A stretch of DNA of 64,000 nucleotides, from contig CAXXFV010000016.1 of assembly GCA_963674595.2 (NCBI GenBank), positions 704,001-768,000 of the forward strand, read 5' to 3'. Under the pieces are notes generated by a model, which was not told the origin of the DNA, made no database searches, and saw only the letters and a list, made by a program, of their open reading frames with translations. Shown in pieces: positions 25,467 to 44,900 of the stretch. How positions within the stretch are numbered: the first letter of the stretch is position 1; every line of letters begins with the position of its first letter. The stretch is from a bacterium (GTDB taxonomy: Bacteria > Zhuqueibacterota > Zhuqueibacteria > Residuimicrobiales > Krinioviventaceae). The position numbers and the translations under genes are program-made.

Positions 25467-25478
25467 CCCGTAATTTTT

Positions 25479-26246: not shown

Positions 26247-26551
26247 TGTTTCCTCCGGATTTTTAATAGAACTTTATATTTAGATACTCGTTTAAAAATC
26301 GCAATTTTATTAATATACAAATTTTTTTAAAAATCCATTGTTTTATTTGTGCTTAATTGTATTGATGGTGAAATCAACACGATTAGAATAATTTAAATTT
26401 TTGAAAAGCGTAGGGAGTTGTGTTTTTTTGTTCGATGTGAAATAACAAAAATCAGCTCAGAGATAAATTAGTCCGATATTTTGAGATGTATACGAGCAGA
26501 AATATGGCTTTGGCTTTGTAGAGTATAGTTGCAGCTTTATAAATGAAATAT

Positions 26552-27286
26552 CTACCTATCAATTTCTTTTTTGTAAATATTATAATAAATTTTTTCGACA
26601 CTATAAAGATGGAAAAATTGTAAATTTTTAATTTCGTTTAATTCATTAACAAAGTAAAATATCGGAAGTTTTATTTGTGTCTTGGGAATTGAAACTTCAC
26701 TTTCGAATTCAGGCATATCAATGATTTTTGTATATAATTTTTTCTTTTGATTATTTCCGAGAATATATCTATGCTCTAAGGGAGAAAATGAGTTTGATTT
26801 TTCAAAACCGAACCAAAATAAAGTTTTAAATTTTTTTTCTTCACTGGAATAATCATACACATAATTATCAAGTCCATCAGCATAACCTGATAATACTAAT
26901 ATTTCCAACTCAATATCAGAATCAAGATTGACAAATCGTCTTTGAAAAATGCCTATAGCAGTATATCTAACTTCTTTTGCCCAAAGAGTCTGGTTTGAAT
27001 CAAGAAAATATTCGAATACATATCCTTCATCAATATTTTTAAGACTGTCTGTTTGAATCCAAACTATATAATCATCAATACTATCTCCTGTAAAATCTAT
27101 GGTTGTTACTTTAATAATGGAATCTTTAAACATATTATAAATAAATTTGGGTAATATAGTTTCCTTTTCTTTTTGTAAAAATTTCAAATCTAATTCTTGC
27201 GAAATTGCGAAAGTAAATGAATTAAAAATAATTATTGATATAAAGTATACATTTTTTAAACTTGTTTTATTCGGGAATAAATTCAT
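26552..27286 (-). CDS. Hypothetical secreted protein, AT-rich
   Basis: 244-aa ORF with hydrophobic N-terminus and the loops IDFTGDSIDD and VNLDSDIELE. Confidence 0.6.
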   Translation of the reverse strand: MNLFPNKTSLKNVYFISIIIFNSFTFAISQELDLKFLQKEKETILPKFIYNMFKDSIIKVTTIDFTGDSIDDYIVWIQTDSLKNIDEGYVFEYFLDSNQTLWAKEVRYTAIGIFQRRFVNLDSDIELEILVLSGYADGLDNYVYDYSSEEKKFKTLFWFGFEKSNSFSPLEHRYILGNNQKKKLYTKIIDMPEFESEVSIPKTQIKLPIFYFVNELNEIKNLQFFHLYSVEKIYYNIYKKEIDR

Positions 27287-27395
27287 AATATTTTGATTAT
27301 TATTGTGTTAACAGGCCATTGTCGTTATTTAATAATGGTTACAGTCTGGGCTGTCTTTTTGAACAATGTCAAACAGTTTATCGTAACGTCTTGAG

Positions 27396-28922
27396 CTATT
27401 TATTAGAAATCCTTGCATCCTCGGCCTCCTCGATTCGCGCCTCAAGACGTTTTTGAAGACTTTTTTCGATTTCGGCATATTCATGCTTTCCTGCGAGATT
27501 GTTGAACTGCTTTGGATCTTTTTTCATATCGTACAACATATATTCGTTGCCCTCTTTTCCCCCGGAAGCGTATCGCATGTAGGCCCATTTTTCTGTGCGC
27601 AGACAAAAATCCGGTCCCACCTGTATAAAGGCATCCTCTTTTAATCCGGGCGCATCAGGATTATCCAGCAGGTGTGCAAAGCTTTTTCCCTGGACTTGCT
27701 GTGGCACGTCAAGCCCGGCAAGTTCTGCCAGAGTCGGATAAATGTCTATCAATTCAACAATGGACGCGCATTCGCGGCTTGTTTTTTTCTGTCCGGGAGC
27801 GCTGACAATCAACGGCGGGCGGATGCTTTCTTCGAGTAGACTCATCTTTTGCCACATGGTGTGTTCACCGAGATGGTATCCATGGTCCGACAGGAAAATG
27901 ACAATAGTGTTTTCACGCCGGCCAAGTTCGTCAAGTGTGTCGAGCAGCCGTCCGACCTGTTCGTCCATGTAGCTGATGGAAGCATAGTATCCGCGCAGGC
28001 TCTTGCGCTGGGCCTCGGGTGTGAGTTTATACTTGACGGCGTTTGTCTGTTTTTTTGCTGTTTCGGGTATGTCCTCAAGGTCCCCTTTAGGTACGTAAGG
28101 TACCTGCATTTCATTGACCTCGTATTCTTTGAAAGAACGCCGTGGGGCTACCAGCGGCACATGGGGACGTACAAATCCTACGCCCAGGAAAAATGGCACA
28201 TTGGCAGCGGCACGCTCTTTCAACAATTCAACGGCTTTGTTCGCGGCCGCACCGTCTGCAAGGTCTGCATTATCCACGTCAGCCTCTACAATAACAAAGT
28301 CACTGCCCTGGTGATTGCCATGTTCGATAAACAGCTTGCCGCCTTTGTTTTTAAGGGCCTGCCATTTTTTGCGATATTCATCGTAAACCGGCGTGCTGTC
28401 TTCAAGCATCACATCTTCCGCTTTGCCGGGTGTGAGTGACTCCATTACACTGACGTTATAACGTTCATCCCACGATGCCGGATGATCTGTACCGTTGTCC
28501 CCGGTATAGATATTTCCGGGAACGCCCATGTGATAGATTTTGCTTACGCGTCCGCTCCAGTAACCGGACTCCCTGAAAAGTTGAGGCAATGTGGGGATAT
28601 TTGCATCAAGAACATCGCCGTTGTTTATCACGCCATTGGACAGGGGATAACGCCCGGACATGATCGATGCTCGTGAAGGCCCACAAAGGGGATACTGACA
28701 GTATGCTCTGGTAAATGAGGTCCCGCGTTCCGCCAGCCTGTCCAGGTTCGGGGTTTTGCATTGGGGATGTCCGTAACCGCTCAATGCCGTGTTAAGATCA
28801 TCCGCCATGATGAAAAGGATGTTTGGCCTCTTTTTTATAGAGTTCGTACATGCCGTGAAGGGTAAAACGCTCGCCACGAATGCTGCGTTCAGGGATTTTA
28901 GGAAATCTCTTCGGTTCACCAT
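27396..28922 (-). CDS. Formylglycine-dependent sulfatase (iduronate/choline sulfatase-like) with a Tat signal
   Basis: NRRDFLK, RPNILFIMADDL, catalytic CGPSR, RPHVP and SDHGYHLGEH. Confidence 0.92.
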   Translation of the reverse strand: MVNRRDFLKSLNAAFVASVLPFTACTNSIKKRPNILFIMADDLNTALSGYGHPQCKTPNLDRLAERGTSFTRAYCQYPLCGPSRASIMSGRYPLSNGVINNGDVLDANIPTLPQLFRESGYWSGRVSKIYHMGVPGNIYTGDNGTDHPASWDERYNVSVMESLTPGKAEDVMLEDSTPVYDEYRKKWQALKNKGGKLFIEHGNHQGSDFVIVEADVDNADLADGAAANKAVELLKERAAANVPFFLGVGFVRPHVPLVAPRRSFKEYEVNEMQVPYVPKGDLEDIPETAKKQTNAVKYKLTPEAQRKSLRGYYASISYMDEQVGRLLDTLDELGRRENTIVIFLSDHGYHLGEHTMWQKMSLLEESIRPPLIVSAPGQKKTSRECASIVELIDIYPTLAELAGLDVPQQVQGKSFAHLLDNPDAPGLKEDAFIQVGPDFCLRTEKWAYMRYASGGKEGNEYMLYDMKKDPKQFNNLAGKHEYAEIEKSLQKRLEARIEEAEDARISNK

Positions 28923-29205
28923 ATTCTTAATGACTCTGTTGTTTTATGTTTTATAAAACGTGAAAATTAATTGATCGTTCATGGATTCGTCAGTTAGTCC
29001 GAGGACTTCATTTTTAAAGGGATGGCATGCTATATATTAAATCTCTTTTTTTCGTAACAAGTCTATCTATTGCGTAAATAACACGTCTTTCACTGGTTCC
29101 TGTACAGTTCTGCATACCCTTGGGCGCATTAACAAAAGAATTGGGACCAACTATATCAAACATTCTTTTTTTATGTTTGTACCATTGTTGTTATTTATTA
29201 AATAT

Positions 29206-30906
29206 TTATTTTTTTGTATCCGCTTCAAGTGCGGCGATAGCTGCATCCAACATATAATCTTTGCCATCAACATATATAGCTTTAAGGCTTTCCATGGTGA
29301 TAGGGATACGGACATCCGGCGCAACTCCTCCCTGTAATAAATGGTTGCTATCAATCTGAATTTTACCATTTTTGTCCAGTGAGGCACCATTCGGAAAATT
29401 GACGGTATAGCCGCCGGGCAATTTAACCGTGGCACCTGCCATGCCAAACGATCCATTCGTACTGTGAAAACCGATGACTTTGCCCCTGTTTGCTAATTTC
29501 ATGATTAATGGAAAACCTTCTCCGGTGCTTCCGGTATTATTGCTGATCAACACAGCGACCGGACCCGTATAGGGTGATGAGTCGGGCTGCAATGATATAT
29601 CGCCAATTACTTTAGGCTGCCCTGTTTTTTCATCCATCATTGCGACCTGTTCATAAAAAAGAGTTTTGGACATAAGTGGTGCCATCATCATGGGAGTCAT
29701 TTCATCAATACCACCAAAATTCAGGCGGACATCAATCACGACGCCGTGAACATTGGCGTTCTTAAACTCATCGATAGCATTCCGCACAGCGCCTACCGGA
29801 TTCAGCGTGCCCAATGTCGGCATTTCCATAGTAATTTTCAAATAGCCGTACCCATTCGGCAAAATCTGTGATTCAACTGTTTTCATAAAAGCGTTCATGG
29901 AAATAAGAGGTGATCCCATCAATAGATCTTTTGTTAATGTTTTCATACTGTCATCAATTGCTATCAGGGATGCTTTTCTAATAAATGTTTCATCGGGATT
30001 TTGAAATGTGATAGCAATAGAGTCACCAACCGGCGCACGGCTGAGCAGGTTAAGCTTACGAATATGCTGTAGTTCCATTGTGGCACAGGGAGATGAACTC
30101 CACAGCGTCGAAACCTTTTCCAGGGTATTTAAAATTGGCTGGTTATTCCAGGTCAGGATTTCTGCACCCCAGGCCATACCCGCCTTTTGCGCTGGACCGT
30201 TTTCTTGGAGAATATGCGCGACCACACGGTTGTCGTCCAACTGAATGAGTGCAAATCCGAATCCGCCGCCAATGGCTGCTTTTCCCAGTCCGAATTTATT
30301 TCCTCCCAAACCGACATGACCATCGGGTATGGAAAAAACATACTGACGCAAGGCCAGATAATACGCGGCTGTGTCTGCGGCCTGTTCTGCAGCAACGATC
30401 TGTGGCTTGTAACAAGTATGAAGAGAATCCCAATTAATGGATTTCCATTCTCCGAATGCATAGTTTTTAGCAAGATGTGCATTCAAATGATCAAACGATT
30501 CGCTCCACCCCAGTTGGCTGAAATCGGTGTGACTACCCATAAAAAGTGATGCCTTTAAGCTATTGGTTTTACCAAAAGACCAGGTTAAAATAACAGAAAC
30601 CGCCAGACAGATAACAAATACCAGTTGCCAGATGATTGTCCAGCCGATCCGAATAGCACGAACCCGGGATTTGGATTTTTTAGCTGGAACTTTCCACTGG
30701 TATAATCCGATCACGATAAGGATAGCTGTTATGACATATACCAAAATCAACGTCTGGTAAAAGCCGTCGATCACCAGTTGCAACAACGCGACGACTGCTA
30801 ATCCCACCGGCCACCAACGCAACCATTTTGAAGACGGACGCAGTGCGGAGAGAACAAGCGCTATGAGATTTGCTATGAGTAAAATGATACTTGCTGGATA
30901 GAGCAT
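29206..30906 (-). CDS. Membrane-anchored S41-family peptidase with a PDZ domain
   Basis: About four N-terminal transmembrane helices; DGHV, GFGF (PDZ), IDVRLNFGG, GSTGE and GVAPDV. Confidence 0.8.
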   Translation of the reverse strand: MLYPASIILLIANLIALVLSALRPSSKWLRWWPVGLAVVALLQLVIDGFYQTLILVYVITAILIVIGLYQWKVPAKKSKSRVRAIRIGWTIIWQLVFVICLAVSVILTWSFGKTNSLKASLFMGSHTDFSQLGWSESFDHLNAHLAKNYAFGEWKSINWDSLHTCYKPQIVAAEQAADTAAYYLALRQYVFSIPDGHVGLGGNKFGLGKAAIGGGFGFALIQLDDNRVVAHILQENGPAQKAGMAWGAEILTWNNQPILNTLEKVSTLWSSSPCATMELQHIRKLNLLSRAPVGDSIAITFQNPDETFIRKASLIAIDDSMKTLTKDLLMGSPLISMNAFMKTVESQILPNGYGYLKITMEMPTLGTLNPVGAVRNAIDEFKNANVHGVVIDVRLNFGGIDEMTPMMMAPLMSKTLFYEQVAMMDEKTGQPKVIGDISLQPDSSPYTGPVAVLISNNTGSTGEGFPLIMKLANRGKVIGFHSTNGSFGMAGATVKLPGGYTVNFPNGASLDKNGKIQIDSNHLLQGGVAPDVRIPITMESLKAIYVDGKDYMLDAAIAALEADTKK

Positions 30907-31027
30907 AATCGATTCCTTTCCGTTTCGTTAGTGGTAAGCATTTTGTTGAAAAGGCAGCATTAAGCAGCTCCTTGTAGATTTGTGTTTTGGCGAATATTAT
31001 GTTTAACTGTAGTAATTTGATGGCTAT

Positions 31028-31594
31028 TTAGGTGTTTTTACGTTTTATGAAAAGCATTAGAAATCCAAATAAAAGTAGTATATAGAACGTAATGGTTAGT
31101 GCACTTTTTACAATTGAAAACAGGCTCGAAATTTGGACCACCAAGGGATTGATGTTTGGCCAGGATCTCAACATCAGGATAATACCGACATTCTCAAAAT
31201 AGTCAAAAAGACCGGCTAACCCTGGAATGAGTGCAAGTAAAAATATTTTTGATTTACTATCAAACCTTTTTCCAAAAAGCCAAACCAGCATTAATGTATA
31301 GGTTACAGCAAAAAGACCCGGGTAGATGAAATCAATCGGCAATTGACGTGTTAAATAGACTTTTCTTCCGACTGGTCCGATTGATTTGAGCAACTCTTTT
31401 GCGTATATAGAATCGTACCCACCCGGAGACATATCAAAAAGTTTCATTTCAGGCGCCTGTGCCGTTACTTTTGGAATTGAATAAAATATGATTATCAAAT
31501 ATACAGCAATCGTTATGATAAACAATAATAATAAAAGTCGCCCCGTCGCGTATTTTTGGAGTTTTTTAATGAAAATATCACTTTGGTTTACCAT
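31028..31594 (-). CDS. Hypothetical membrane protein
   Basis: Four hydrophobic segments, motifs IDFIYP and FDYFEN, and RBS aaggag. Confidence 0.75.
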   Translation of the reverse strand: MVNQSDIFIKKLQKYATGRLLLLLFIITIAVYLIIIFYSIPKVTAQAPEMKLFDMSPGGYDSIYAKELLKSIGPVGRKVYLTRQLPIDFIYPGLFAVTYTLMLVWLFGKRFDSKSKIFLLALIPGLAGLFDYFENVGIILMLRSWPNINPLVVQISSLFSIVKSALTITFYILLLFGFLMLFIKRKNT

Positions 31595-31708
31595 GTTTTT
31601 AATGGCTCCTTGTGGATTTTTTTCGATATTGCGTTGAAATTGACTGATTGCCCAAGAGTTCGTGCTTGAGATGTTTTAATATAAGGGCTGGACCCAGCGA
31701 TGTCAACT

Positions 31709-32272
31709 TTATTGTAAGATTTTGTATTTTTCTGACCGTTTTTTTATCGCTTTTAACCAAATTCTTCTTATTAATGCACTTCCCGGGTATACAATCATCC
31801 AGTATATGGCAAATTTTCTTTTCGCTTTTTTATCGCTCATATAGATTCTGGTTTCAGTGCTTACCAGTACATTATCTTTACGTTCTGCTAAGAAGAAATT
31901 TGTTACTACCTTTCCTGATTCACTTTCATTAAAATTTTTGAAATCAACTTCCGAATTAATTCTTTTCCTTTTTATTCTTCCGAATTGTCCAATAATACCA
32001 AAGACTATTTCCTGATCAGTTGTTTCAAGTATTTTGAATCCTTTTTTTTCCAGTTGACTTAACAGGGGAGTATCAGGACGAAAACCGATATAGTCCCTTC
32101 CCAGTATTCTGGGCGGAAGGGAACGAATAAAGAACAATAAATTGAATAAAAATGAGATTTCATTTGGAGCAAGATCTATAATGGTTTTTAAAATTTGATC
32201 TTTGGTTGCATTGACTTTGATTGTATGCTTTTCTGAGAAATGAAATTCAGGTATATATTCGTTAATAAGCAT
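31709..32272 (-). CDS. Hypothetical protein (DUF2867-like)
   Basis: FHFSEKHTI, STETRI and KFAIYW..V.PGSALIRRIWLKAIK. The start could instead be 32332. Confidence 0.6.
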   Translation of the reverse strand: MLINEYIPEFHFSEKHTIKVNATKDQILKTIIDLAPNEISFLFNLLFFIRSLPPRILGRDYIGFRPDTPLLSQLEKKGFKILETTDQEIVFGIIGQFGRIKRKRINSEVDFKNFNESESGKVVTNFFLAERKDNVLVSTETRIYMSDKKAKRKFAIYWMIVYPGSALIRRIWLKAIKKRSEKYKILQ

Positions 32273-32381
32273 TTTATTATTTCGATTGTATAATTTTAAA
32301 AAAAATAGACCCTTTTTTACTCTTCCATACATTCTCGGATTTCAACCTCTGGGTATTCAATAATATATAGCTATTAAACTA

Positions 32382-32504
32382 TTGTGCAAGTGAAAAAACA
32401 GATATTTGTGTTTTTACTGGTTGAACTGCATTTAATCAAATAATTAGTTTTTGTTGAATTATTGGGAGACGATAATACTTGGTTGACTATGCCTTGATTG
32501 CAAT
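32382..32504 (-). repeat. Degenerate copy of the dispersed intergenic repeat
   Basis: ttgtgcaagtgaaaaaacagatatttgtg, plus aattattgggagacgataatacttggttgactatgccttgattg resembling the second block. Confidence 0.6.
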
Positions 32505-32655
32505 CCGAGGATGAGCAGAGAGTCTTTAAATAACACCTGTGTAAACGGCGGGAAATTTTAACACACTTTAATTACTTGTTGATAGTAATAAAGTCCGAAA
32601 CTTTTAATGATGCAGCAACCATTGCTATTGGGTGATGCTGATGGTAGACCATACA

Positions 32656-33582
32656 TCAGTCAAACCGATTGATCTCAAATTTGAAAACATCGGATCTTGA
32701 ATAATGACCTGCCGCGTCAAACATCCTTTTGCACATCGTGACAAGAGTGAGGTCAATTTCAGCATAGAGAATTTCCTCTTTCATTTCAACAGGACCCGCA
32801 ATGACCTCGCCGGTGGGACTGACGATGCAACTGTTCCCGGAATTGATCCACTCCCTGCCTTTCGGATAGTTCTGCTTAAATCCATAGCTATCCGGAACAT
32901 CCTGCATTCTCAAAGCCAAACAGCAACTAATGACATACATACCACCTTCTCTGGCAATATGTCTCAGGCTCAATTGCCAATTTTCACTTTTGTCCCAGGT
33001 TGGGGCTGCCAGAATCTGTGTGCCGCCCATATACATGGCATTACGGGCAAGCGGCATATAATTTTCCCAGCAAATGAGGCCGCCCAGTTTTGCAAATGAT
33101 GTGTTAAATACCTGTAAAGTAGTGCCGTCGCCTTGTGCCCAAATGAGGCGTTCACCGCCTGTGGGAATTAATTTACGGTGTTTGCCCATGATATTGCCGT
33201 TTGAATCAATGAACAGCAGTGTGTTAAAAAGGCTGGCGTTGCTCGCTTCTGCATTGCGTTCATTTACTCCCATTACAACATGAATTTTCGCCTTATTCGC
33301 TGCCTTGCACAGTTTGTCAGTTGATTCATCAGGAATTGTTACAGCATTCTGAACCAGTTCTGCATACAGTTCATTTAATATAGCGCCGTTGCTGTTGGGT
33401 ACATTCCAAACCCAGTCCGGATAACCCGATATAAACGCTTCAGGAAACACTATTAGTTTGGCACCTTTTCTCCCAGCCTCTGCGATTAAGCTGCACGCTT
33501 TTTCAACAGTCTTTTCTTTGTTTAAATATATTGGGGCCGCTTGAGCAGCGCCGACTTTGAAAGGATTTCGTGTTAACGCCAC
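32656..33582 (-). CDS. Nitrilase (carbon-nitrogen hydrolase)
   Basis: Catalytic triad in FPEAF, HRKLIPT and ICWENYMP; DAAGHYSR. GTG 33582 follows GAGGAGG. Confidence 0.9.
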   Translation of the reverse strand: MALTRNPFKVGAAQAAPIYLNKEKTVEKACSLIAEAGRKGAKLIVFPEAFISGYPDWVWNVPNSNGAILNELYAELVQNAVTIPDESTDKLCKAANKAKIHVVMGVNERNAEASNASLFNTLLFIDSNGNIMGKHRKLIPTGGERLIWAQGDGTTLQVFNTSFAKLGGLICWENYMPLARNAMYMGGTQILAAPTWDKSENWQLSLRHIAREGGMYVISCCLALRMQDVPDSYGFKQNYPKGREWINSGNSCIVSPTGEVIAGPVEMKEEILYAEIDLTLVTMCKRMFDAAGHYSRSDVFKFEINRFD

Positions 33583-33904
33583 ATTCACCTCCTCAAGTGA
33601 TAATTGAACAAAACGTGTAATTGTCACTCACCTTGAGGTCCCAATCTCCGGAAGCTAAAATTATAATATATATAACCCAACTTTTGTATTAAATATTCAA
33701 TGTGCAAATTTTTTCAGGTTGAATTCCTCTTGTTGTAATTTTATGTTTTTGATGGATGTTACTGTTTTTTGAGAAATTTATGAAATCAGTGTTGAATTTC
33801 AAGCTGTTTAGGTATGTTTAATGGCGGGTAATGTTACCAGCTATGCGATTCATCGCAAAAAAAGCAGTGGAGTAATATGAACGTTTGGCCCGGCGATGTC
33901 GACT

Positions 33905-34981
33905 TTATTTGTAATTTAATGGTAATGTGTCTGCTATACGCAGATCTCTCCAATATCCATTTATTTTAAAAGCATCATTATATGGATTGCCCAAAGTATC
34001 AACAAGCGCTTCATCGGTTTTCATTTTAATAAAGGATAATTCAGAATACCAAAGATTTTTTGGTCTTTTCTTTGTTGGATGTTTTTTTTGCGGGAAATAT
34101 TTTGATTCTATTACTAAAATATCGTTGAAATGTATTTTTTTTATACCATTCAAATTCGTATCAGTAACCAATTCGTTACTATATTTATTAATTTCGCCTG
34201 GTTCTATTCCAAAACGATTATTTACCGACACAATTCCTTTGTAAATGTGAAATTGTTCTTTATCTATTTTATTACGAGCTAACGCAGACAAAAAATGTTT
34301 GAATGAACCTTGATATGTTTTATATCTCTGTTTTTCCCACTTTTCCATTTCTTTTGGATTTTTGGGCTGCATTTCTTTAAAAAAGAGAATGGTGTTATAT
34401 TTAACATAATCCTGCAAAATGAAATTTTCTAATATTATTTCAATGTGATATCCCAGTGCTCTATTTTCTACATGAATGAGACTATCTGAAGAAGCAATTA
34501 ATGCACCCGTATCATTCTCTTTAGTGAAATTAATTACTTCAGGATTTAGAATTTTACACTTGGCTGCATTTGTCGTTTCACCCAAAAATTCTCTGGTAAA
34601 AGTTTGTAATCTCTTCTTCCATTCTTTTGGTATATCTCCGGTAACCTGGACCATTTCGCCTTTAATTATGGCAGGTTGGAGTTCGATCAAAATATTGTTA
34701 TTGTGATTTGATTTTGAAACATCAATAGATAATTTTTTTAACTCATAGCCAATATGTTGAATTATTAAATCATATCTTCCCGCTGGAATATTATTTATAA
34801 TGAAATTACCCTCAGATGTTGTAGTGCTCCCCAATGTTGTATTTGAAAGAAAAACGTTAACAAAAAAAATGGGTTCTTTTGTTTGGGCGTCAATGACTTG
34901 TCCATTAACCGAATAATGCGATATTGAATAAGCACGAGCTGAAACCAACAATATGAATATTAGAAAAATTTTATTTTTCAA
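33905..34981 (-). CDS. Secreted protein with a carboxypeptidase-regulatory-like (CarboxypepD_reg) domain
   Basis: VNGQVIDAQTKEPIFFVNVFL...GSTT...GNF...HIGYE. TTG 34981 follows AGGAGG. Confidence 0.75.
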   Translation of the reverse strand: MKNKIFLIFILLVSARAYSISHYSVNGQVIDAQTKEPIFFVNVFLSNTTLGSTTTSEGNFIINNIPAGRYDLIIQHIGYELKKLSIDVSKSNHNNNILIELQPAIIKGEMVQVTGDIPKEWKKRLQTFTREFLGETTNAAKCKILNPEVINFTKENDTGALIASSDSLIHVENRALGYHIEIILENFILQDYVKYNTILFFKEMQPKNPKEMEKWEKQRYKTYQGSFKHFLSALARNKIDKEQFHIYKGIVSVNNRFGIEPGEINKYSNELVTDTNLNGIKKIHFNDILVIESKYFPQKKHPTKKRPKNLWYSELSFIKMKTDEALVDTLGNPYNDAFKINGYWRDLRIADTLPLNYK

Positions 34982-35134
34982 TTTTATCCTCCTGCTTAAT
35001 TTTTCACCTATTACGGGAGTTTGCTCGTTCACTTAAATGGTTATGCCAACTTAATCAATCCTGTAAATTCCAGGTTTTTCCTGAAAATTAAAATCTCCGG
35101 GCTGTCAAAAATATCGGCCCGGTGCTGAGAAACG

Positions 35135-35637: not shown

Positions 35638-36594
<957 letters not shown>

Positions 36595-36636
36595 TGTGCC
36601 GACTCCTTTTTATATAACAGTTAGAGTACATACTAC

Positions 36637-36748
36637 TGACATGAAATATGATACGTTGATGCCTGGAAAGTTTTACACCACCTTATCAAAAATACATAAA
36701 CATGGAACGATTATGCAAGTAGAAAAATAGATATTTGTATTTGTGCTG
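36637..36748 (-). repeat. Copy of the dispersed intergenic repeat with a promoter-like core
   Basis: Plus-strand core gaacgattatgcaagtagaaaaatagatatttgt (36705-36738) matches 38460-38492 and 39657-39689. Similarity to the 39.6-kb copy continues through aaagtttta. Confidence 0.75.
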
Positions 36749-36756
36749 TTTTTTGA

Positions 36757-38103
36757 TCATGCTTTAAATTCTTGTTTATAGAGGTCAAACATTATTTTTG
36801 CGGTACCGGATATGGTTGTTCGGTTATACCCTGAAACAGAGGTTAACAGTGTATCATTCAATGGGCTGGTCCATTTGTCAGGTAACGCATCCGCGCCCAG
36901 GACCATGCCCATGATTGAACCAACGGTTGCACCGTTGCAGTCGGTATCAAAACCGGGCCATACAGATTTTGTAATTGCCTGCTCAAAGTCTCCTTCCGAC
37001 CATAGCAGTGCCATCGTTACAATCTGAGCATTCGAGATTACATGGCACCAGTCATGTGAGTGATATTCATCCCATTGTTGATGAATTCGTTTCACCGCGT
37101 CTTGATAAGTTATGCCCTCGTCGTGCCATGCAAGAACTGATCGTACTTTTTCGCTAAAACGGCTGTTGAATGGAATTTCGTTCAAGCCAATTTCAATAAT
37201 CCTGCAAATATCGTTTTCCACACCGGCCGCGGCTAATGCGGCAGCAACCCACATTTCGCCGTAAATGCCATTTTTAACATGAGAGATACTCGCGTCACGC
37301 CAGGCCAGTTCTGCCGCTAATTCAGGCCGGCCCAGGGCAACATACCCATAAAAATCCGCTCGTATTTGGGCACCAATCCATTCGCGATATGGATTTCGCA
37401 CGACAGCCGAAAGTGGTGGACTGATTTGGTTGGCAAAATTTCGATAAGCCACACGTTCGGCCGTACATGTGCTTAATAATGGAATTTGCGTCATCCAAAA
37501 CTGAGCAACGTCATTTGAAGTAAACTGTATACCTTTTGATTTAACAAGAGCCATACCGGTTATTGTATAATCTGCATCATCATCTCTGGGCATGTGATCA
37601 AACTCTGTGAACATCTGTGCATCCGGTTTGAGTTCGGCTAAAATATCTTTAGTAATCCCTAACCGCCAAAAATAATCTGTTAGCATCTCATGTCCAGCCG
37701 CCTTCACTATCGGCCATAATTGATCCGTACGCCAACCTTCAACCGGTTTTCCCAGTAAGCAGCCGGCACAACGCCCCAGCCAGGCTCCGTGGATTTTATC
37801 CGCAGTAACGTTATCTGTATATTTTTTTGCCGATATTCTGTCTTTTGTTTGAGGCCGTGTATCCCGGATGGCTTGCAAATCAGAAGGTTCCTCAAAAGTA
37901 TAATCATCTCGAATCGGTAATGTTTGTACTGTGTCCAGCAAATTATTCATTTTTTGCTGTAAATCAAGAGTATGCTCAATACCTTCTTTGGAGAGTAAAT
38001 TAAATTCTTGCTCAACAGAAGAAATATCCCGACCTTCCTGGACAGCTTGTAGTTTTTCAATTTCCACATCCTCGGAATTCCACCATAGCCATAAATTTTT
38101 CAT
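36757..38103 (-). CDS. ADP-ribosylglycohydrolase family protein
   Basis: Motifs GAWLGRCAGCLLGKPVEG, DDDADYT, EWIGAQIRAD, SHVKNGIYG and GFDTDCNGAT. Confidence 0.88.
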   Translation of the reverse strand: MKNLWLWWNSEDVEIEKLQAVQEGRDISSVEQEFNLLSKEGIEHTLDLQQKMNNLLDTVQTLPIRDDYTFEEPSDLQAIRDTRPQTKDRISAKKYTDNVTADKIHGAWLGRCAGCLLGKPVEGWRTDQLWPIVKAAGHEMLTDYFWRLGITKDILAELKPDAQMFTEFDHMPRDDDADYTITGMALVKSKGIQFTSNDVAQFWMTQIPLLSTCTAERVAYRNFANQISPPLSAVVRNPYREWIGAQIRADFYGYVALGRPELAAELAWRDASISHVKNGIYGEMWVAAALAAAGVENDICRIIEIGLNEIPFNSRFSEKVRSVLAWHDEGITYQDAVKRIHQQWDEYHSHDWCHVISNAQIVTMALLWSEGDFEQAITKSVWPGFDTDCNGATVGSIMGMVLGADALPDKWTSPLNDTLLTSVSGYNRTTISGTAKIMFDLYKQEFKA

Positions 38104-38459
38104 AATTATTCCCAAGTTGTTCCATATACTGCTTGCGATCTTGAGACGACATCGTTTTATACAACGACTTTTTTAGCCTTAGCAGTGACATTTTTTGAAT
38201 TTTATATTACCTGCCCTCAGTTCTGGAATAAATAGTGTTAAACCATATATTAACACTATGTTTACGGGGCAGTTGATCGCACGGCAAAACGTCTCGGTCA
38301 AACATAAAATATATAAAAACAGTTTTGAATTTTCAAGTTTAAACTGTTTAACCATTTTGGAAAAGATATATCCAATTATTAATAATGCTATACGGTCAAT
38401 AGGCTTTCAAATAGTCTGCTATAATTTGGATTTATCGTTCTTATTAAAAAGCAGCCCCT

Positions 38460-38547
38460 GAACGATTATGCAAGTGAATAATAGATATTTGTGCTATTGC
38501 TGATTTAACAGTGTTTTGAAATATTATTTGGGTTGTGTTTCTGTCAT
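38460..38547 (-). repeat. Copy of the dispersed intergenic repeat
   Basis: gaacgattatgcaagtgaataatagatatttgtgctattgctgattt. Confidence 0.75.
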
Positions 38548-38559
38548 TTATTTATGGAT

Positions 38560-39549
38560 TCACCGCACCGCTTTTTTTATGATTCCAAGCTTCCACGTTA
38601 ACATGGCATAGGAACCCTGATAATCGTTTTTAAGGATTCCCTGAATAAGCCATTCGCAATCGTCTGGTTGATATTCCATTAACTGATTGCAGTCTGACCG
38701 GATAACTTCACCATGAGAAATCATCTCCAACCAGGGTTTGGACTGCCCTGTATATTTGAGCTGGGCACCGGTTGCATAGGTGTCGGTCACTTTATGCCAG
38801 GGTCCGTTCAAGTCGTCAGCAACGGCAATTCCAAATGATCGAATCGTCTCGTTCTTTAATTCATATATCATATGGTATTCCTGGGTATCTTTAACCTTAT
38901 AGATATGAACAGCCTCATGAACACCCTGTAAAGCAATTTCAGGGGCGCTCCAACCGGTTGGAAAATTTTCAATTTCTGTTGTTCTAACAATCACATCCTT
39001 TTGTGATTGTGTATAAAATAGATAAACATTTTTTTTGTCACATATCACCCAAAAATCAATCCATTTTTCCGGACTGTCTTTTTGCAGCAATTGTATCGGG
39101 TTTTGCCAGGTTTCAGGTTGTGAAATTGTCGTTGTTGTTGAAAATGCCGGTTGATAGTTGGCGTCCTTGTTTTGAAAAATGAGATACCATTTATTTTGAG
39201 GCTCAAAAAAGAAAATTTGCGGTGCACAGCCGTATCTGCTTTTTCCGCGAATCGTTTTTAATTCGTGCCTTGGAGCTGTTTGTAAATCCTCCTGTTTTTT
39301 GGCTGATACATATCCTGTTGTATATTCATTCTTGTCCCGGGCCGTATAGAAAACATGCCACATGTTCTCATAAAATACAACAGAGGGATCTTTAACGGCA
39401 ATTTCATCAAATGAACCTTCCGGACCAGGCAACAGAACAGGATCACCAACGAGCCATGTATTCGATTCTGCATGACGGGTACATCCGGTTAATAAAATCG
39501 AACTTAATGAGATAAAAATCATTAAAACTTTTATAGTGATATTTTTCAT
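38560..39549 (-). CDS. GH62-family alpha-L-arabinofuranosidase (lipoprotein)
   Basis: Lipobox LTGC; motifs VKDPSVV, CAPQIFFF...WYLIFQ, IDFWVICD, EAVHIYKV and ISHGEVIR. Confidence 0.82.
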   Translation of the reverse strand: MKNITIKVLMIFISLSSILLTGCTRHAESNTWLVGDPVLLPGPEGSFDEIAVKDPSVVFYENMWHVFYTARDKNEYTTGYVSAKKQEDLQTAPRHELKTIRGKSRYGCAPQIFFFEPQNKWYLIFQNKDANYQPAFSTTTTISQPETWQNPIQLLQKDSPEKWIDFWVICDKKNVYLFYTQSQKDVIVRTTEIENFPTGWSAPEIALQGVHEAVHIYKVKDTQEYHMIYELKNETIRSFGIAVADDLNGPWHKVTDTYATGAQLKYTGQSKPWLEMISHGEVIRSDCNQLMEYQPDDCEWLIQGILKNDYQGSYAMLTWKLGIIKKAVR

Positions 39550-39570
39550 TGAAATTATTTCCTTAAACGG

Positions 39571-39790
39571 CTGATATGAAAGTAATCTATCGGGATATGA
39601 TAGGTAAATAGTAATAGCAAAGTTTTACCACGCTTTATTAAAAATAAATAATCAAGGAACGAATATGCAAGTGAAAAATAAATATTTGTTACATTGCTGA
39701 ATTTTATATTTCATCATATTATCTGGTGTTATCAAATTATTTTGGGGTAGAAATCCCTGTTGATTACTTGTGCTTTAATTGATGATGGTT
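39571..39790 (-). repeat. Longest copy of the dispersed intergenic repeat
   Basis: Contains the core gaacgaatatgcaagtgaaaaataaatatttgt and a second block aaattattttggggtagaaatccctgttgattacttgtgctttaattgatgatggt. Confidence 0.75.
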
Positions 39791-40442
39791 TATAATCGTA
39801 AAGGCCAAGTCTTTGTTCTTATGTGTGCAAAAATCGGAACCTCTGGACGATCAAAAATAACTATTAATTAGATTTTAACTGTTCTTTGAGTACAAGTCCA
39901 TATCCTTTTCGCCACTCTTTATCAATCAATATAAAATTTTCAAAATTTCCAGTTTCAATTTCTTTCCATTCAATATGCTCTAAAACAATAATTTGAAAAT
40001 CTTGCTTCAATTCATTTTTAAAAAAATTAATATGGTTATCAAGTGTTTGTAAAGCCTTGAAAAATGTTTTTCTTTAATAACTATCTTTGTCATTAGTCTC
40101 ATAGTATGGACTATCTGGTTGATCTAAGATTAGAAAAGGGGGAATATAGGGAATTTCTTTTTTAGCAAATAATCTATGGATAGCAGCAAAAAATGCTAAA
40201 TGTAAAAAAAGGTGATTCGACGAACTTCCAATATTTCTAACAGTATTATCTCTATATATCACTTTTTCATCTATTTTTTTTAAATGGATTAATTTTGTTT
40301 TAAAGTCAAAAATTGGTTTATAGTCCTTATACCCACTTAAGCTAAAATCAACTTCTCTAAAAATTTCTTGCATATATTCACCAAGTGTGTCTAATGTATC
40401 GCTTCTATCAACTTCAGTTATTTCTTTCTTTAATGCTTTAAT

Positions 40443-41412
40443 TGTAAGAAAAGCAAGCGTTGTTTACAAAATATCGGGATAAAAATATTGAATTAGTTTT
40501 TCTTCAGGAGTTAGTCCATCAATGCCTTTATGAGGTCTTACTCCGTTGTAATAATTGACAAATCTTTTTAGCTCATTTTTACGATGGGCTGATGATTTAA
40601 AAACAGTTTTATTATGCCAAAGCTCGACAAGAGTTCGTATAACTCTTTCAGCTTTGCCATTTGTTTGTGGCCTTTTAACTTTGGTAAATTTTTGTTCAAT
40701 ACCATGTTCTTTGCACAACTTCATAAACTTATGATTATTCGGATCACCTCGGTACTCTCGGCCATTATCAGTATAAAATTGTTCTATTGTATATGGACAT
40801 TCATCCACGACTTGCTCCAAAAACTTTTTAGCTGAATATTGGGTTTTATCAGGTAAAATAGCAGCATACAGTTCTCTAGAAAAGTCATCAATGGCCACAA
40901 ACAGGTATTCCGTTCGTTCAAAAGGAGATTCCCCCTTAATTAAGGGAAGTTTTTTAGTGTCACCATGTATCATTTGTCCTGGATAGTCTTTATTATATCG
41001 TTTGGCCTGACGTTTTAGCTTGTCCTCAAGTTTTTTTTCGATTTTAGCCAAACGTTTAATGCCGTATTTTAAACAGCGAAAACGCTTGTTTACACTCTTG
41101 TGAATTGAATAATCTTTTTGTCGGCCATTATGGATTATTTTATAAATTGTAGGTCGACTGACATGAAACTCTCGTGCTAAATCACAAACACGTCTTTTTT
41201 CGGAAAAATATAATGTGCAAACTTTTTCCCGTTGAATCGGCGTTAATCTGGTCTTTTTATGAATTACCATAGGATCTCCTTTTATTAAAAATTAGGAAAT
41301 CCCGAAATTGCAAACAACATTAAATTTGCTTCTCATGAATTGAATCCTATCTCTTTATAAGGAACGGATTCAATTCATGAGAAAACTGTAAACAACTCTA
41401 ATTTAATTTACA
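40443..41412 (-). mobile_element. IS481-family insertion sequence, 970 bp
   Basis: TGT...ACA ends; imperfect 26-bp terminal inverted repeats (TGTAA-N11-GTTGTTTACA); flanking 7-bp direct repeat CTTTAAT at 40436-40442 and 41413-41419. Confidence 0.9.
40464..41270 (-). CDS. IS481-family DDE transposase (rve integrase core)
   Basis: HKKTRLTP helix-turn-helix start; HGDTK, IDDFSR, TDNGREY, PQTNGKAERVIRT and YYN..RPH. Confidence 0.92.
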   Translation of the reverse strand: MVIHKKTRLTPIQREKVCTLYFSEKRRVCDLAREFHVSRPTIYKIIHNGRQKDYSIHKSVNKRFRCLKYGIKRLAKIEKKLEDKLKRQAKRYNKDYPGQMIHGDTKKLPLIKGESPFERTEYLFVAIDDFSRELYAAILPDKTQYSAKKFLEQVVDECPYTIEQFYTDNGREYRGDPNNHKFMKLCKEHGIEQKFTKVKRPQTNGKAERVIRTLVELWHNKTVFKSSAHRKNELKRFVNYYNGVRPHKGIDGLTPEEKLIQYFYPDIL

Positions 41413-42702
41413 CTTTAATATCATTTTCAATTTTTTCTATTGACTTAGTATAGTCAATGCTTACATGATCATGACTATAGAATTCTAACGAACTTTTTAC
41501 TTCACCTAAAAATATTAGTTGTTGTTTTCTATTTGTGTCTACCACCTTTTCATCAACTGAAATGTTTTGAATATTTGCATCTATTCGTTGAAGTTTATCT
41601 TTTATCTCTTTAATTTTTCCTGTTAAATCTATGATCGCAGGTGATTCTTTTTGAGCAATAAAATTTTTTATTGCTTGATACTCTATGGCAATTGAGTTTA
41701 TGATTGTATCAGTTTTACTGATGTTAATAACATCAGTAAAATTTTCTTGTAAATATAAAATAGGTTTTAAACTGTCGGTATCATTTTTGAGTAAATTTTT
41801 ATATTTTTTGTATTGTGTAATATATTTTTCATATTTTGAAAGTTTAATCTGGAGTCTTAATTTTTCTTGTTCATAATTTTCAAGTTCTAATTGGTTGTCC
41901 AAAATTGGTATCTTCGATATATCTTGAAGTTGTTGTTTTAACTCGACGATACACTCTTCGTTGGACATTTTTAAACTTACTATGTTTAACGATTTTGCTT
42001 TTTGACATAATTTATCAATTTCTTCTTCAAAAGTATTGAACTTTTTACTGAGATGCTCTTCTTGTCTTATAAGCTTTGCTAATTCTTTCTCTTTCTCTAC
42101 AACCATCTCGTGCTTTATTAAATTATCAATTGTTGTTACTCCCAATGCTATATCAAAAATTCTTGCCAAAGCCTCTTGATATCGAATGTATTTTTCGCCA
42201 GATTGTTTGTCAAATAGAACTTCATCACTTGATAATACATTTCTTCTTTGAGTGTTGAATAACAAAAAATATCTTGGAGATATTTTTGTACCTTTTGTAA
42301 TTTTATTGCCACCATACGGAAATACTACGTTATCAGTTATCTGGAATTCCAAATTTATAATATTCCTAATTTTATCTTCAGGGAAATTGGGAAAGGGGGC
42401 CTCAGGGATCTCTCCAGAAGATGAAAAATAATAATCGTTTATGCTTTTACTGTGTCTTACAATTGTTAAATGCTTATCATTGATAATAAAGTTTATACCA
42501 AACCATGCAATTTGATCAATGTACTCGTCCCCTTGAACTATTGGGCTCGAACTCGCAAAGAAGCAAAAGTCTATTATCTCAATAATAGTAGACTTTCCTG
42601 TTGATTGCTCTCCAGTTATTATATTAACTTTATTATTAAAAAATACAAGTTCTCTAAATGATCCATTATTTAACCATATTCCTATTTTTTTTAAGTAAAA
42701 TT

Positions 42703-43161
42703 TCATAATTCAATCCTAAGTTTGAAATATAATTCTCCTGAATTTTCTTGTAACATATTAGATACTATTTTAGACGCTTGTACAATTTTTTGTGCTCTCT
42801 TTCCTAACTTATTATTATTAAAATCAAACTTTTCTAGTTTATCTTTTACAATTATAATCTTATTTTGCTTAGTTTTAATAAAACCTAATTTTTCAGCAAA
42901 CAAAATTGTGTTAAGAGATAGTGGTAAAAAGGCAATAAATCTATTATTAAAATTTAAAAAGCATTCAATTTTTGATAATATCAGATCTTCGATACCTCTT
43001 ATTTTTACCCGCTCATCTTTCATATAATTTGTTAATGGTTTGTGGAGTAATAATGGTTGAATCAACATTGCTTTAGCGTAGTTGATTTCCTCATACTCTC
43101 TTATAGTAGATAAAAATGCAACAAGGGAAATACCAATATTGTTATATATTTCAATCTTCAT
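42703..43161 (-). CDS. lmuC: Three-component ABC system middle component (LmuC/DdmB-like)
   Basis: 152-aa protein (IYNN...LIQPLLLH...) translationally coupled between the effector and the DUF3732 ATPase. Confidence 0.72.
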   Translation of the reverse strand: MKIEIYNNIGISLVAFLSTIREYEEINYAKAMLIQPLLLHKPLTNYMKDERVKIRGIEDLILSKIECFLNFNNRFIAFLPLSLNTILFAEKLGFIKTKQNKIIIVKDKLEKFDFNNNKLGKRAQKIVQASKIVSNMLQENSGELYFKLRIEL

Positions 43162-44362
43162 AGTTATATTCTTGCTTCCATGTATATTTCCACCCAATTT
43201 TGGGTATATCTGATATTTTTATGAATTGTCCATTTGATATAGCTCTATATTCAATTGTATGACCTGATAAATTCAAATCAATTTTTTTGATATTTATAAA
43301 TACTTTTTTAGCGTTTTTATTATTGTATTCTTCCTCCCAATATGCTTCTTCAAATAATGGTCTCCATTTGTCTATGGTATTTTTATCTAGTTGTTCTATA
43401 TCTTTTTGAGATATTTCTCCGTTTTGTTTTAACTCAATTAAATTATTTACAGCCAAATTTCTATTATAGTCATACTCATAAATTTCTTCATCTGTATATC
43501 CAATATCATTTAATTGTTTGGCAAAAATTCTATTTTTAATTCTAACATCTTTTGTATAGTTATCTAGCTTATCAAAAAATGGTAGTCGATCACTATTTGC
43601 ATTTTGAAAGATTTTTATTGTTTTAAAATAGAAATCATCTCCACTATATTTTACTGACTCCTTATTTGCTACTTTATTATAAAAATCGATTTTAAGTTCT
43701 CCTATGAGCTCTTTTAATGTGTTATCAATTCGATTTTCTTTGATAGACTTTCTGAATTTGAGTGCTTCTTTTATTTCGCCGCTAATATCATCGAGGTCCA
43801 ATTGAAAAGAAATGTTCTTAAAAAATATTTCTAGTAGATTATCATTTAACAACAATACGTTTTTTAGATAATCTATTTTTTTGTCTTGTTTTTCCGTTTT
43901 GTCTGTTTTTTTCTTTTCTTGATGAACCTTTTCCAATTCATCTAAATAATTAGTTAAAAATGTTTTTAAATCAGCAAAATGGCCCTTTATTTTGAAGTTT
44001 TTAAAAGAATTTAAAAAACTATTGTTTTCATTGTCTGACTTATTTGAAATAAATATAAATTTAGTATTTTGAAGATATTTTGACTTATCATTTTCTCTTT
44101 GTATTTTATCTATCCATAATGATAATGTTTTCCATAAATCCTTATCTGATGTGCTAAGATTAATTGGTTTGTTATCTTTGTTTGTTTGAATTGTATGTTT
44201 GAGTTGGTATAAAATTAATTTTTCACCGTTTTCTGTATGAACATCTTCATTTACTTCGAAACCAGCAATTTCATTTTTTTCTAATTTTAATAATTTTAAT
44301 AGGAAATATAGAAATTGATATTCATATCCTAAAAGTTTATCATCTGCCTTGGTGTCAGTCAT
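43151..44362 (-). CDS. lmuA: Lamassu effector: Cap4-like PD-(D/E)xK endonuclease with an ABC-3C C-terminal domain (LmuA/DdmA-like)
   Basis: LLGYEYQ...FEVNEDV...YQLKH nuclease motif, DLWKTLSLW, and C-terminal SNGQFIKISDIPKIGW. First gene of an overlapping AT-rich three-gene operon. Confidence 0.78.
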   Translation of the reverse strand: MTDTKADDKLLGYEYQFLYFLLKLLKLEKNEIAGFEVNEDVHTENGEKLILYQLKHTIQTNKDNKPINLSTSDKDLWKTLSLWIDKIQRENDKSKYLQNTKFIFISNKSDNENNSFLNSFKNFKIKGHFADLKTFLTNYLDELEKVHQEKKKTDKTEKQDKKIDYLKNVLLLNDNLLEIFFKNISFQLDLDDISGEIKEALKFRKSIKENRIDNTLKELIGELKIDFYNKVANKESVKYSGDDFYFKTIKIFQNANSDRLPFFDKLDNYTKDVRIKNRIFAKQLNDIGYTDEEIYEYDYNRNLAVNNLIELKQNGEISQKDIEQLDKNTIDKWRPLFEEAYWEEEYNNKNAKKVFINIKKIDLNLSGHTIEYRAISNGQFIKISDIPKIGWKYTWKQEYNYED

Positions 44363-44641
44363 CTACAAACCTTTTCGAAAAATTATATTTGGTAATTTAA
44401 GATAATCAGATTGATAATTAAATTTTTCATTAAATATTATTCTGAGTTACTATAACATAGTTTTAGGAATGAACTTTGATCCAATATTTTAATCAATTCT
44501 ATTCGTTTTGAAATTATATCATAAGGATTTATATAATATTCACATTTTGGAACAAGATAACAGGTATGCATATTTTCCCCCAAACCCAATAATTTTGTCA
44601 GCGGGTCAACAGGAATATGATTTTAATTCCGACGCAATCTT

Positions 44642-44801
44642 TCCTCGTATGTGCTGTGAGACCCGTTTTTATGATGGAGACCAGTAAAGGACTTTTCAGG
44701 AACGCCCGTGATTTTCCAATTGTCCTGAAAAAAGTGTCCTTGTACCAACAAAAGAATTGTACAAATTATTTAAAAACAACGCAAGAGGTTTTTGCAAGAA
44801 T
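44642..44801 (-). repeat. Direct repeat copy 1 (sigma70-like promoter plus hairpin)
   Basis: Shares a 28-bp exact match (44758-44785 = 49277-49304) and the blocks gtatgtgctg, gagaccagtaaagg and tttcagga..tcctgaaa with 49165-49320. Confidence 0.85.
44756..44784 (-). promoter_or_regulatory. Putative sigma70 promoter TTGCGT-N17-TACAAT
   Basis: Minus strand reads TTGCGTtgtttttaaataatttgTACAAT; the second copy has TACACT at -10. Confidence 0.55.
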
Positions 44802-44835
44802 TGTTAAAATCCGCCCGCTTGTTTCGATCCGGGCG

Positions 44836-44900
44836 TGCGAAAATAGATATTTGTGTTATTGCTGATTCTATAAAATTATTTTTAGGGTAGAGAACCCTGT
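44836..44900 (-). repeat. Partial copy of the dispersed intergenic repeat
   Basis: aaaatagatatttgtgttattgctgatt followed by aaaattatttttagggtagagaaccctgt. Confidence 0.7.

Follow-up and report, generated by a model that had tools for sequence, protein, structure and literature searches.

Two linked intergenic modules, which we term B and C, recur in nine complete or partial copies that cluster within 18.6 kb of the genome of a bacterium of the family Krinioviventaceae, all in the same orientation and each upstream of an unrelated gene. They lie between about 26.3 and 44.9 kb of the window analysed here, a stretch of 64,000 nucleotides (nt) that corresponds to positions 704,001 to 768,000 of contig CAXXFV010000016.1. 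We assign a probability of roughly one-half to the interpretation that B and C are a locally copied promoter region, comparable to the putative mobile promoters described in other bacteria, which drives approximately seven unrelated units in an integrase-less acquisition hotspot. An earlier interpretation of this DNA, made from its letters alone (the sequence-only reading), had proposed a gene-capture hotspot analogous to an integron array. Promoter reuse in a transfer hotspot that lacks an integrase accounts for the data, and no new, non-attC type of integron need be invoked.

Two linked modules recur in one locus

Module C, the core of the repeat, extends over approximately 50–85 nt and is represented by four full copies and one truncated copy, all on the minus strand. 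Copy C1 (32357–32422) is located 24 nt upstream of a gene for a 207-amino-acid (aa) protein. Copy C2 (36667–36752) begins 5 nt past the stop codon of an ADP-ribosylglycohydrolase gene and ends 72 nt upstream of the ATG of an aldo/keto reductase gene, copy C3 (38460–38509) is located 344 nt upstream of the ADP-ribosylglycohydrolase start codon, and copy C4 (39619–39703) is part of a combined B+C unit that precedes a GH62-like gene. The truncated copy occupies 44840–44868. Pairwise identity among the full copies ranges from 76% to 85% over 47–72 nt. Specifically, C1 is 76% identical over 66 nt to 36686–36751 in C2 and 80% identical over 50 nt to 38461–38509 in C3; C2 is 84.7% identical over 72 nt to 39619–39689 in C4 and 85.4% identical over 48 nt to 38460–38506 in C3; and C3 is 85% identical over 47–48 nt to C2 and C4, and 96% identical over 26 nt to the truncated copy (44842–44867). 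Local alignments yield z-scores relative to shuffled sequences of 11.8–25.9 on the same strand and at most 4.7 on the reverse strand, which upholds, for the module copies, the observation of the sequence-only reading that the spacers reuse a sequence in one orientation. The core sites it had placed at 36705, 38460 and 39657 are confirmed, as is its partial site at 44840, which is the truncated copy; its other partial site, at 32382, is a full copy.

A 76 nt nhmmer model was built from the four full copies, which it retrieves, by construction, with E-values of 1e-14 to 1e-17 (1.1e-14 for C1). The truncated copy, left out of model building, is matched with an E-value of 0.025. No module C was found elsewhere in the 6.6-Mb genome by this search, in which the next match has an E-value of 1.2. 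An all-against-all comparison of 2685 intergenic regions independently groups the same four copies. No more than four local families with at least three members emerge from this comparison, and three of them, that of module C included, are fully co-oriented. The genome-wide count recommended by the sequence-only reading thus gives no copies outside the locus, and the scattered dispersal of miniature inverted-repeat transposable elements or repetitive extragenic palindromes is not what is seen. The core pattern has no match in public genome and metagenome collections, which may omit the same or very near genomes.

Module B is approximately 60 nt in length and is present at three supported sites and one marginal site, all on one strand, with copies that are approximately 75–80% alike and differ by indels. 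To locate it, 39725–39795 was aligned by the Smith-Waterman method to all 2685 intergenic regions. The best non-self match is the spacer 26247–26551 (score 41; 39730–39789 aligned with 26314–26369), which carries a copy at 26312–26375, 65 nt upstream of a gene for a 255-aa protein (ATG at 26246). The third is the spacer 44363–45009 (score 38), with a copy at 44865–44910. The marginal copy (33700–33764) is 72 nt upstream of a nitrilase gene (GTG at 33627), and its spacer, 33628–33904, ranks 23rd of 2685 through a gapped alignment of 39733–39787 with 33705–33758 (score 27). By blastn alone, only 44869–44908 was supported as B (80% over 40 nt, E-value 0.011–0.043), and blastn-short placed the site at 26331 beneath chance matches, whereas the gapped search of all intergenic regions placed its spacer first. 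The sites given in the sequence-only reading as 39734, 44873 and 26331 therefore stand and that at 33706 is marginal. B is unsupported at 32457, where the reading had also put it, and at approximately 38520; their spacers rank 758 and 733 of 2685. A B profile found no further copy in the genome (next match, E-value 2.8). A division of this module into a left part at 44.9 kb and a right part at 26.3 kb, resembling attP, attL and attR sites, was considered and dropped, as the alignment of the 26.3-kb copy extends across all 60 nt.

The two modules are joined at two places. The sole complete B+C unit (39619–39793, minus strand) consists of C at 39619–39703 and B at 39727–39793 and is located 69 nt upstream of the GH62-like gene. 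A truncated unit (44840–44910, minus strand) retains the first 40 nt of the 60 nt plus-strand alignment of B and the upstream half of C distal to its TTGCAT box; on the coding strand, this C stops at ...CTATTTT, directly before the box.

Position and boxes resemble those of promoters

Modules are present in seven of the fifteen spacers of at least 30 nt between 25286 and 45009, and not in every intergenic gap of the array as had been supposed. The minus-strand start codon that follows each copy is 24–344 nt downstream, and the genes concerned are unrelated and mostly single-copy; because each copy sits upstream of an unrelated minus-strand gene, the modules appear to head transcription units. 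An all-against-all blastp comparison of 14 array proteins gave no significant pairs and none below an E-value of 0.5, in line with the unrelated functions already noted for these genes, and 8 of the 14 proteins tested are single-copy in the genome. By the same comparison, the genes downstream of the modules are non-paralogous, as is required of putative mobile promoters.

The modules also contain sequences that resemble promoter elements. Module C keeps TTGCA(T/C), followed 18 nt further by TATTTT, TATTTT, TATTAT or TTTTAA, and approximately 30 conserved nt are located upstream of these boxes. Module B carries TCAACA/TGGACA-N16-17-AATAAT. A consensus scan identifies sigma-70-like sites in B on the minus strand at 39763–39736 and 44903–44875, and another at 38547–38520 on the same strand in a weak B-like stretch. 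A sigma-54 (−24/−12) promoter and a small plus-strand open reading frame (ORF) were considered by eye as alternative contents of the modules, and neither fits. From position, orientation and conserved boxes we infer a putative promoter function.

Putative mobile promoters were defined, according to a commentary on the original study, as sequences at least 80% identical over at least 50 nt upstream of non-paralogous genes (Matus-Garcia, Nijveen and van Passel 2012; PMC3575422). The pair C2–C4, with 84.7% over 72 nt, exceeds both values; C2–C3 and C3–C4 (85% over 48 and 47 nt) fall just short in length, and C1–C2 (76% over 66 nt) is under the identity threshold. The commentary describes the published families as mostly pairs that average 92% identity and need not cluster (PMC3575422). 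What the present locus shares with them, as they are portrayed there, is similar non-coding sequence before non-paralogous genes of one genome with no associated transposase; it differs in having nine copies of two linked modules within 18.6 kb, co-oriented, 75–85% alike and set in a region of mosaic composition. We regard the locus as a clustered, co-oriented variant of putative mobile promoters.

Under this interpretation, B and C would be two parts of one promoter region of approximately 170 nt, intact only at 39619–39793, that was copied whole or in part within the 18.6-kb stretch, and a B and/or C copy would now stand at the head of approximately seven co-oriented units of mixed-composition genes. 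Genes newly placed behind reused promoters would be readily expressed and would probably be regulated together, and the conserved stretch of approximately 30 nt upstream in C could hold an operator. Spacers without a module would be operon-internal. The copy at 44840–44910 would have been cut on the arrival of a Lamassu defence unit that bears its own promoter-leader, the 230 nt element described below. Co-regulation by the modules, and the mechanism by which they were copied, are likewise inferred.

Several observations weigh against this interpretation. The promoter-bearing spacer of the sequence-only reading retains its promoter-like position and its TTGCA(T/C) followed by an AT-rich box, but the boxes of C fall under the threshold of the sigma-70 scan. 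Candidate motifs of this kind give weak orientation tests in the genome as a whole: TAnnTTTG occurs 629 times in sense and 626 times in antisense, and for TTG-N16-18-TAnAAT the ratio of sense to antisense is 1.47. C3 is as far as 344 nt from its gene. Because the C copies differ by approximately 15%, they are old or separately imported and not recently propagated. Finally, three strain breakpoints fall at B (26311, approximately 39751 and 44896), and these, together with the B copies that bracket the region and the Lamassu unit, fit the role of a junction or att site at least as well as that of a promoter.

A 230 nt promoter-leader element occurs throughout the genome

The lmuA gene of the Lamassu operon is headed by a different element of approximately 230 nt (44575–44810, minus strand; nhmmer E-value 5.7e-52). 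A second copy in the window is found by nhmmer at 49110–49320 (minus strand), and 116 of the 118 matches in the genome lie outside the window (for example, C29:46614-51181, where the prefix denotes another contig of the same genome). Eighty copies are near full length, and a co-oriented gene is located downstream of 77 of these at a median distance of 165 nt. The element begins with TTGCGC-N17-TATAAT, a near-consensus sigma-70-like sequence, and continues with approximately 190 nt of conserved leader. A G+C-rich hairpin read from the sequence, CGCCCG...CGGGCG followed by TTTT (44811–44839, minus strand), is located between the truncated core and the copy that heads lmuA, and similar hairpins precede other copies of the element.

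The leader fits a five-helix structure in which 82% of cells are paired, versus 37–51% with slid partners, an advantage that is partly built in because the structure was taken from relaxed RNAalifold settings on the same alignment; with default settings almost no structure is predicted. Double-sided changes are present in 35 cells, compared with 17.4 ± 4 in shuffled alignments, and none of 500 shuffles reaches the observed value. The element has no match in Rfam, and the whole window yields none at gathering score, with only chance-level matches in 44300–45000. A covariance model found no copy in 42 other genomes of the order, which leaves the element in this genome only.

Genes behind the element are of highly varied kinds and rich in defence-like and secreted proteins. 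They include Lamassu, caspase, TIR, KAP NTPase, SNF2, AlbA_2, Gp49, DUF4238, BRO-N and Y1-transposase genes, three PAS kinases, six proteins with type IX secretion system (T9SS) tails, glycoside hydrolases and an integron integrase; of 57 proteins tested, 20 match no Pfam family. Pairs of copies separated by less than 6 kb show 71% similarity, against 58% for the remaining pairs, and 4 of 13 near pairs exceed the 99th percentile. At C23:97250-98716, a Y1 (IS200-like) transposase gene is located between two direct copies whose first 82 aligned nt, 47 nt upstream of the element included, are identical, after which identity declines to approximately 85% towards the 3′ end.

Two more local co-oriented intergenic families, with three members each and 100–282 nt aligned, are found upstream of minus-strand genes at C14:96660-104159 and C23:873742-884261, and may reflect further local promoter copying. 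This genome thus contains more than one case in which a promoter region was copied locally next to unrelated genes, so that the array of B and C stands out less; of the two families, the 230 nt promoter-leader is the more unusual.

Correia elements, ERIC and REPIN are short repeats able to supply promoters to adjoining genes. All three are named as promoter-bearing interspersed repeats in the commentary cited above (PMC3575422). The resemblance fits the 118-copy element better than it fits B and C, which are not dispersed, and no terminal inverted repeats were seen by eye in B, C or the 230 nt element. The latter also differs from these repeats in nearly always facing a gene (77 of 80) and in carrying its conserved leader of approximately 190 nt.

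Strain differences fall at the modules

Contigs of four public sequencing runs were compared with the window over 25300–45200. Those of strain X3 leave 28.6–30.6 and 34.6–35.9 kb uncovered, those of X4 the ADP-ribosylglycohydrolase gene and the Lamassu operon, and those of X5 most of 26.3–44.8 kb; joints with 20–32 letters on the shorter side (26988 to 42879 and others) were ignored as probable repeat artefacts. X3 is identical wherever covered, except that one contig crosses lmuB without an insertion sequence (IS) that interrupts this gene in the window (the joint skips 977 nt). Given this near-identical contig, the insertion is recent, and because X3 is otherwise identical in sequence it shares the in-frame stop codon of lmuB. 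X4 is approximately 1% divergent and has the same order over 26880–36662. One of its contigs carries a 34 nt deletion (39640–39673) between 11 nt direct repeats, which removes the TTGCAT and AT-rich boxes of C4; past this deletion 78 nt more match, to approximately 39751 inside B, and approximately 147 further letters are unplaced in the rows shown. X5 is 2–4% divergent. One contig joins 44810 to 44896, across a joint whose shorter side has 38 letters, so that the truncated B+C piece is missing; in a second contig the match stops at 26311, next to but not within the B copy, with 28 letters of the contig left.

All three strain differences other than the IS therefore fall in or at modules, each in a single low-depth contig. 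Given the partial copies and these strain differences, the data suggest that the repeats are also substrates for ordinary recombination or slippage. Within their coverage, the strain contigs show no whole-unit gain, loss or swap and no empty site. The prediction that strain breakpoints would lie in the repeat is thus borne out in position but not in the gain or loss of units. Likewise, the proposal of a gene-capture hotspot agrees with the mosaic G+C content, the local co-oriented repeats and the breakpoints at modules, but no unit gain or loss and no capture machinery accompany them; such a hotspot is hypothetical.

More distant comparisons point to an array assembled in this lineage. A DNA search of 26000–45500 against 40 relatives, none of the same genus, matched only the IS and scattered gene fragments. 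The GH106 protein encoded downstream of the array has an orthologue in relative G008 that is 55% identical, with no shared neighbours in the surrounding 80 kb. For the ADP-ribosylglycohydrolase, identity to the best match in the order is 40%, and the sodium:solute symporter encoded upstream of the array, whose best family match is 36% identical, is without a usable family orthologue. In 80 metagenome loci (562 kb) that carry homologues of the GH62-like protein at up to 63% identity, no modules or other array genes are found alongside, and on this ground we consider the array a lineage-specific assembly and not a conserved operon.

The modules as possible insertion junctions

The placement of B allows one main alternative, a modified form of the capture hotspot of the sequence-only reading, in which B, perhaps with C, is a junction where foreign segments insert serially, either by a recombinase acting in trans or by Campbell-type recombination of a circular molecule that carries a module and a gene. 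The site would be duplicated each time, as when genomic islands accrete in tandem at one site, and any promoter role would be secondary. We judge this unlikely on balance, although it accounts for several observations. Direct repeats of B bound both the Lamassu unit (39727–39793 and 44865–44910, 80% over 40 nt) and the whole mosaic region (26312–26375 and 44865–44910); the low-G+C Lamassu unit is located between two copies of B with C, and the remaining segments have C, or no module, at their ends. In the coding direction, a gene or unit of low G+C content directly precedes each B: the gene for a 244-aa protein (24.6%), the CarbopepD_reg gene (30.3%) and the Lamassu genes (25–28%). The end of the X4 match (approximately 39751) and the X5 joint (44896) correspond to within approximately 6 nt of the same position in B, and the other X5 match stops at 26311. 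The Y1-transposase gene flanked by direct copies of the 230 nt element, with identity that falls from 100% to approximately 85%, offers a parallel elsewhere in the genome.

Against serial insertion, the window contains no integrase and no tRNA, whereas tandem genomic islands carry a cognate integrase and target a tRNA or a conserved gene's 3′ end, and the B copies, with their indels and 75–80% similarity, are not fresh duplications. No convincing B accompanies the C copies at 32.4, 36.7 and 38.5 kb. Neither a vacant site nor an exchanged unit is seen in any contig, the order in X4 is unchanged over 26880–36662, and the breakpoints are those of single low-depth contigs, with 38 and 78 letters past two of the joints and 28 unplaced at the third.

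Comparison with integrons and transfer hotspots

The array resembles an integron, or a CALIN (a cluster of attC sites that lacks an integron-integrase), in its co-oriented, unrelated and often orphan genes with a recurring non-coding element, as such arrays are portrayed by Cury et al. (2016; PMC4889954). In that account an integron has an intI gene adjoining the array, a CALIN has no intI and two attC sites or more, and attC sites are imperfect palindromes that form single-stranded hairpins with R″ (RYYYAAC) and R′ (GTTRRRY) boxes. The cassettes are mostly promoterless and are driven by a common promoter, Pc.

The genome does encode a true integron integrase (IntI), but on another contig (C3:115823-116767, locus L110). 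Its score of 453.7 bits against TIGR02249 (cut-off 265) makes it the only match above the cut-off in the genome, and its gene has a copy of the 230 nt element at its head. Crude scans found no repeat array or attC-like sites beside it and no attC candidates genome-wide. In the window, Pfam identifies no tyrosine recombinase, none of the 13 TIGR02249 places falls there, and neither an island-type integrase nor a tRNA or tmRNA target was found (0 by tRNA scan). The five repeat units show no attC-like folding as DNA on either strand (z-scores −1.50 to +1.25), and pairs of R″ and R′ boxes between 25286 and 45009 are at chance level, with 1 per strand versus 1.9 ± 1.4 in shuffles.

The locus thus differs from integrons in lacking attC-like hairpins, R″/R′ boxes, a nearby intI and an attI, and in having modules in 7 of 15 spacers. 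It probably differs also in that the recurring element sits 5′ of the units with promoter-like boxes, where promoters in integron cassettes are rare according to the same source (PMC4889954). The sequence-only reading was correct that integrase and attC are absent, but overlooked an IS481-family transposase gene at 40464–41270; its analogy to an integron with a non-attC site is not supported, and the locus has no recombinase, attC-like structure or other dedicated capture machinery.

Hotspots without mobile-element genes that are maintained by homologous recombination are described as well documented (Oliveira et al. 2017, PMC5635113). Like these, and like the minimal mobile elements of Neisseria as they are characterized in PMC3787668, the locus combines a variable mosaic gene set with conserved flanks and no recognisable mobile machinery, where flank conservation is that seen in two contigs of one strain only. 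Both models, in these accounts, presume homologous recombination as the driver (PMC5635113; PMC3787668). They differ from the present case in that core genes in the flanks provide the homology, whereas here short internal repeats subdivide the region.

Portable homology, operators or relics as less likely alternatives

A broader proposal, which we find doubtful, is that this lineage builds and reshuffles its accessory genome with promoter-equipped cassettes. The modules would serve as portable homology, locally for B and C and genome-wide for the 230 nt element; host recombination would loop out circles that carry a module and a gene, and these would integrate again wherever a copy of the module resides. 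Such a system would be the counterpart of an integron without an integrase, and captured genes would be expressed on arrival. Leads in this direction are the direct module copies that flank the Lamassu unit and the Y1-transposase gene on contig C23, the greater similarity of near copies, and the strain breakpoints in modules.

Both a static regulon and neutral relics are less likely than promoter reuse or insertion junctions. In the first case, the conserved part of C (and B) would be the operator of one transcription factor, kept by selection and with no role in acquisition. The best-conserved stretch, CAGCAAT..ACAAATATCTATT, is indeed adjacent to the TTGCAT box on its upstream side, the position bound by activators, and three copies are conserved at approximately 85% despite unrelated flanks. 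However, similarity extends over 47–72 nt, and C2 and C4 remain alike past the putative −10 region to GTAAAACTTT; because this is longer than an operator, it points to common descent. No regulator gene is present among the window ORFs of at least 150 aa, no further site is found in the genome, and the array genes are unlinked in other organisms, and we think a purely regulatory origin rather improbable. Least probable of all is that the repeats are functionless remains of ancient segmental duplications, the duplicated genes having since been replaced or deleted. In favour of this, the copies form a mosaic of partial forms (B alone, C alone or truncated) and are 15–25% divergent; against it, all nine share one strand and are placed at a promoter-like distance from the start codon that follows, no paralogous coding trace lies beside any of them, and only 4 local families with at least three members exist among the 2685 intergenic regions.

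Genes of the locus

Every ORF of at least 150 aa from 20531 to 49070 is on the minus strand, which extends the co-orientation previously described for 25.5–48.5 kb. In the coding direction, as annotated with Pfam, NCBIfam and PADLOC, the order between 49.1 and 20.5 kb starts with the sodium:solute symporter operon (45010–48526), followed by the Lamassu operon and then by genes for GH62-like, ADP-ribosylglycohydrolase, aldo/keto reductase, 138-aa, CarbopepD_reg, nitrilase, 207-aa, 188-aa, S41 peptidase, sulfatase, 244-aa, 255-aa and GH106 proteins. The unrelated genes from the 255-aa to the GH62-like gene (25479–39549, minus strand; Pfam, NCBIfam) were counted as thirteen, twelve of which are named here. 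Neighbouring genes span 24.6–49.8% G+C; ranked among 2719 long ORFs of the genome, this corresponds to percentiles 0 to 97, in agreement with the visibly differing content reported earlier. The extremes are the 244-aa gene (24.6%, 0th percentile) and the sulfatase gene (49.8%, 97th percentile); the 207-aa gene, like the CarbopepD_reg gene, has 30.3%, and the composition of the units between modules is not uniform.

Two further observations concern genes near the downstream end. The 3′ end of the 255-aa gene (25479–25640) consists of 15 nt tandem repeats that encode a lysine/threonine-rich C-terminal tail. A paralogue of the GH106 gene at C9:94066-97886 in the same genome, in three pieces with a stop codon, is probably a pseudogene; identity is 47–61% for protein and 71% for DNA over 1.4 kb.

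The Lamassu operon (39864–44362, minus strand; PADLOC LmuA 1.4e-38, LmuB 7.5e-45) is foreign and is decaying. All on the minus strand, it comprises lmuA (43151–44362; PADLOC), an MC3/LmuC-like gene (42703–43197; Pfam MC3), and the N-terminal (41408–42706; PADLOC) and C-terminal (39864–40463) parts of lmuB. The latter gene is broken twice, by the insertion of an IS481-family element (40436–41412) and by an in-frame stop codon at 40074–40076. The rve/IS481 transposase of the element is encoded at 40464–41270 (NCBIfam 2.3e-58). This IS of approximately 980 nt has four copies in the genome that are 99–100% identical (the window copy, C4:154769-155741, C8:377409-378402 and C14:101259-102228). Copies in relatives G008 and G015 are 83–84% identical, and many contig ends of relatives G017, G014 and G006 match it. 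The coding sequence of lmuB also contains a near-perfect palindrome with a 15-bp stem (41711–41743).

Significance

Should the modules be no more than relics, this would be a transfer hotspot of an ordinary kind. If instead they are active promoters, it would be a clear natural case, in a little-studied uncultured lineage, of horizontally acquired genes being expressed behind copies of a resident promoter. The 230 nt promoter-leader, an uncatalogued candidate structured RNA, suggests that accessory genes are organised in this manner across the genome.

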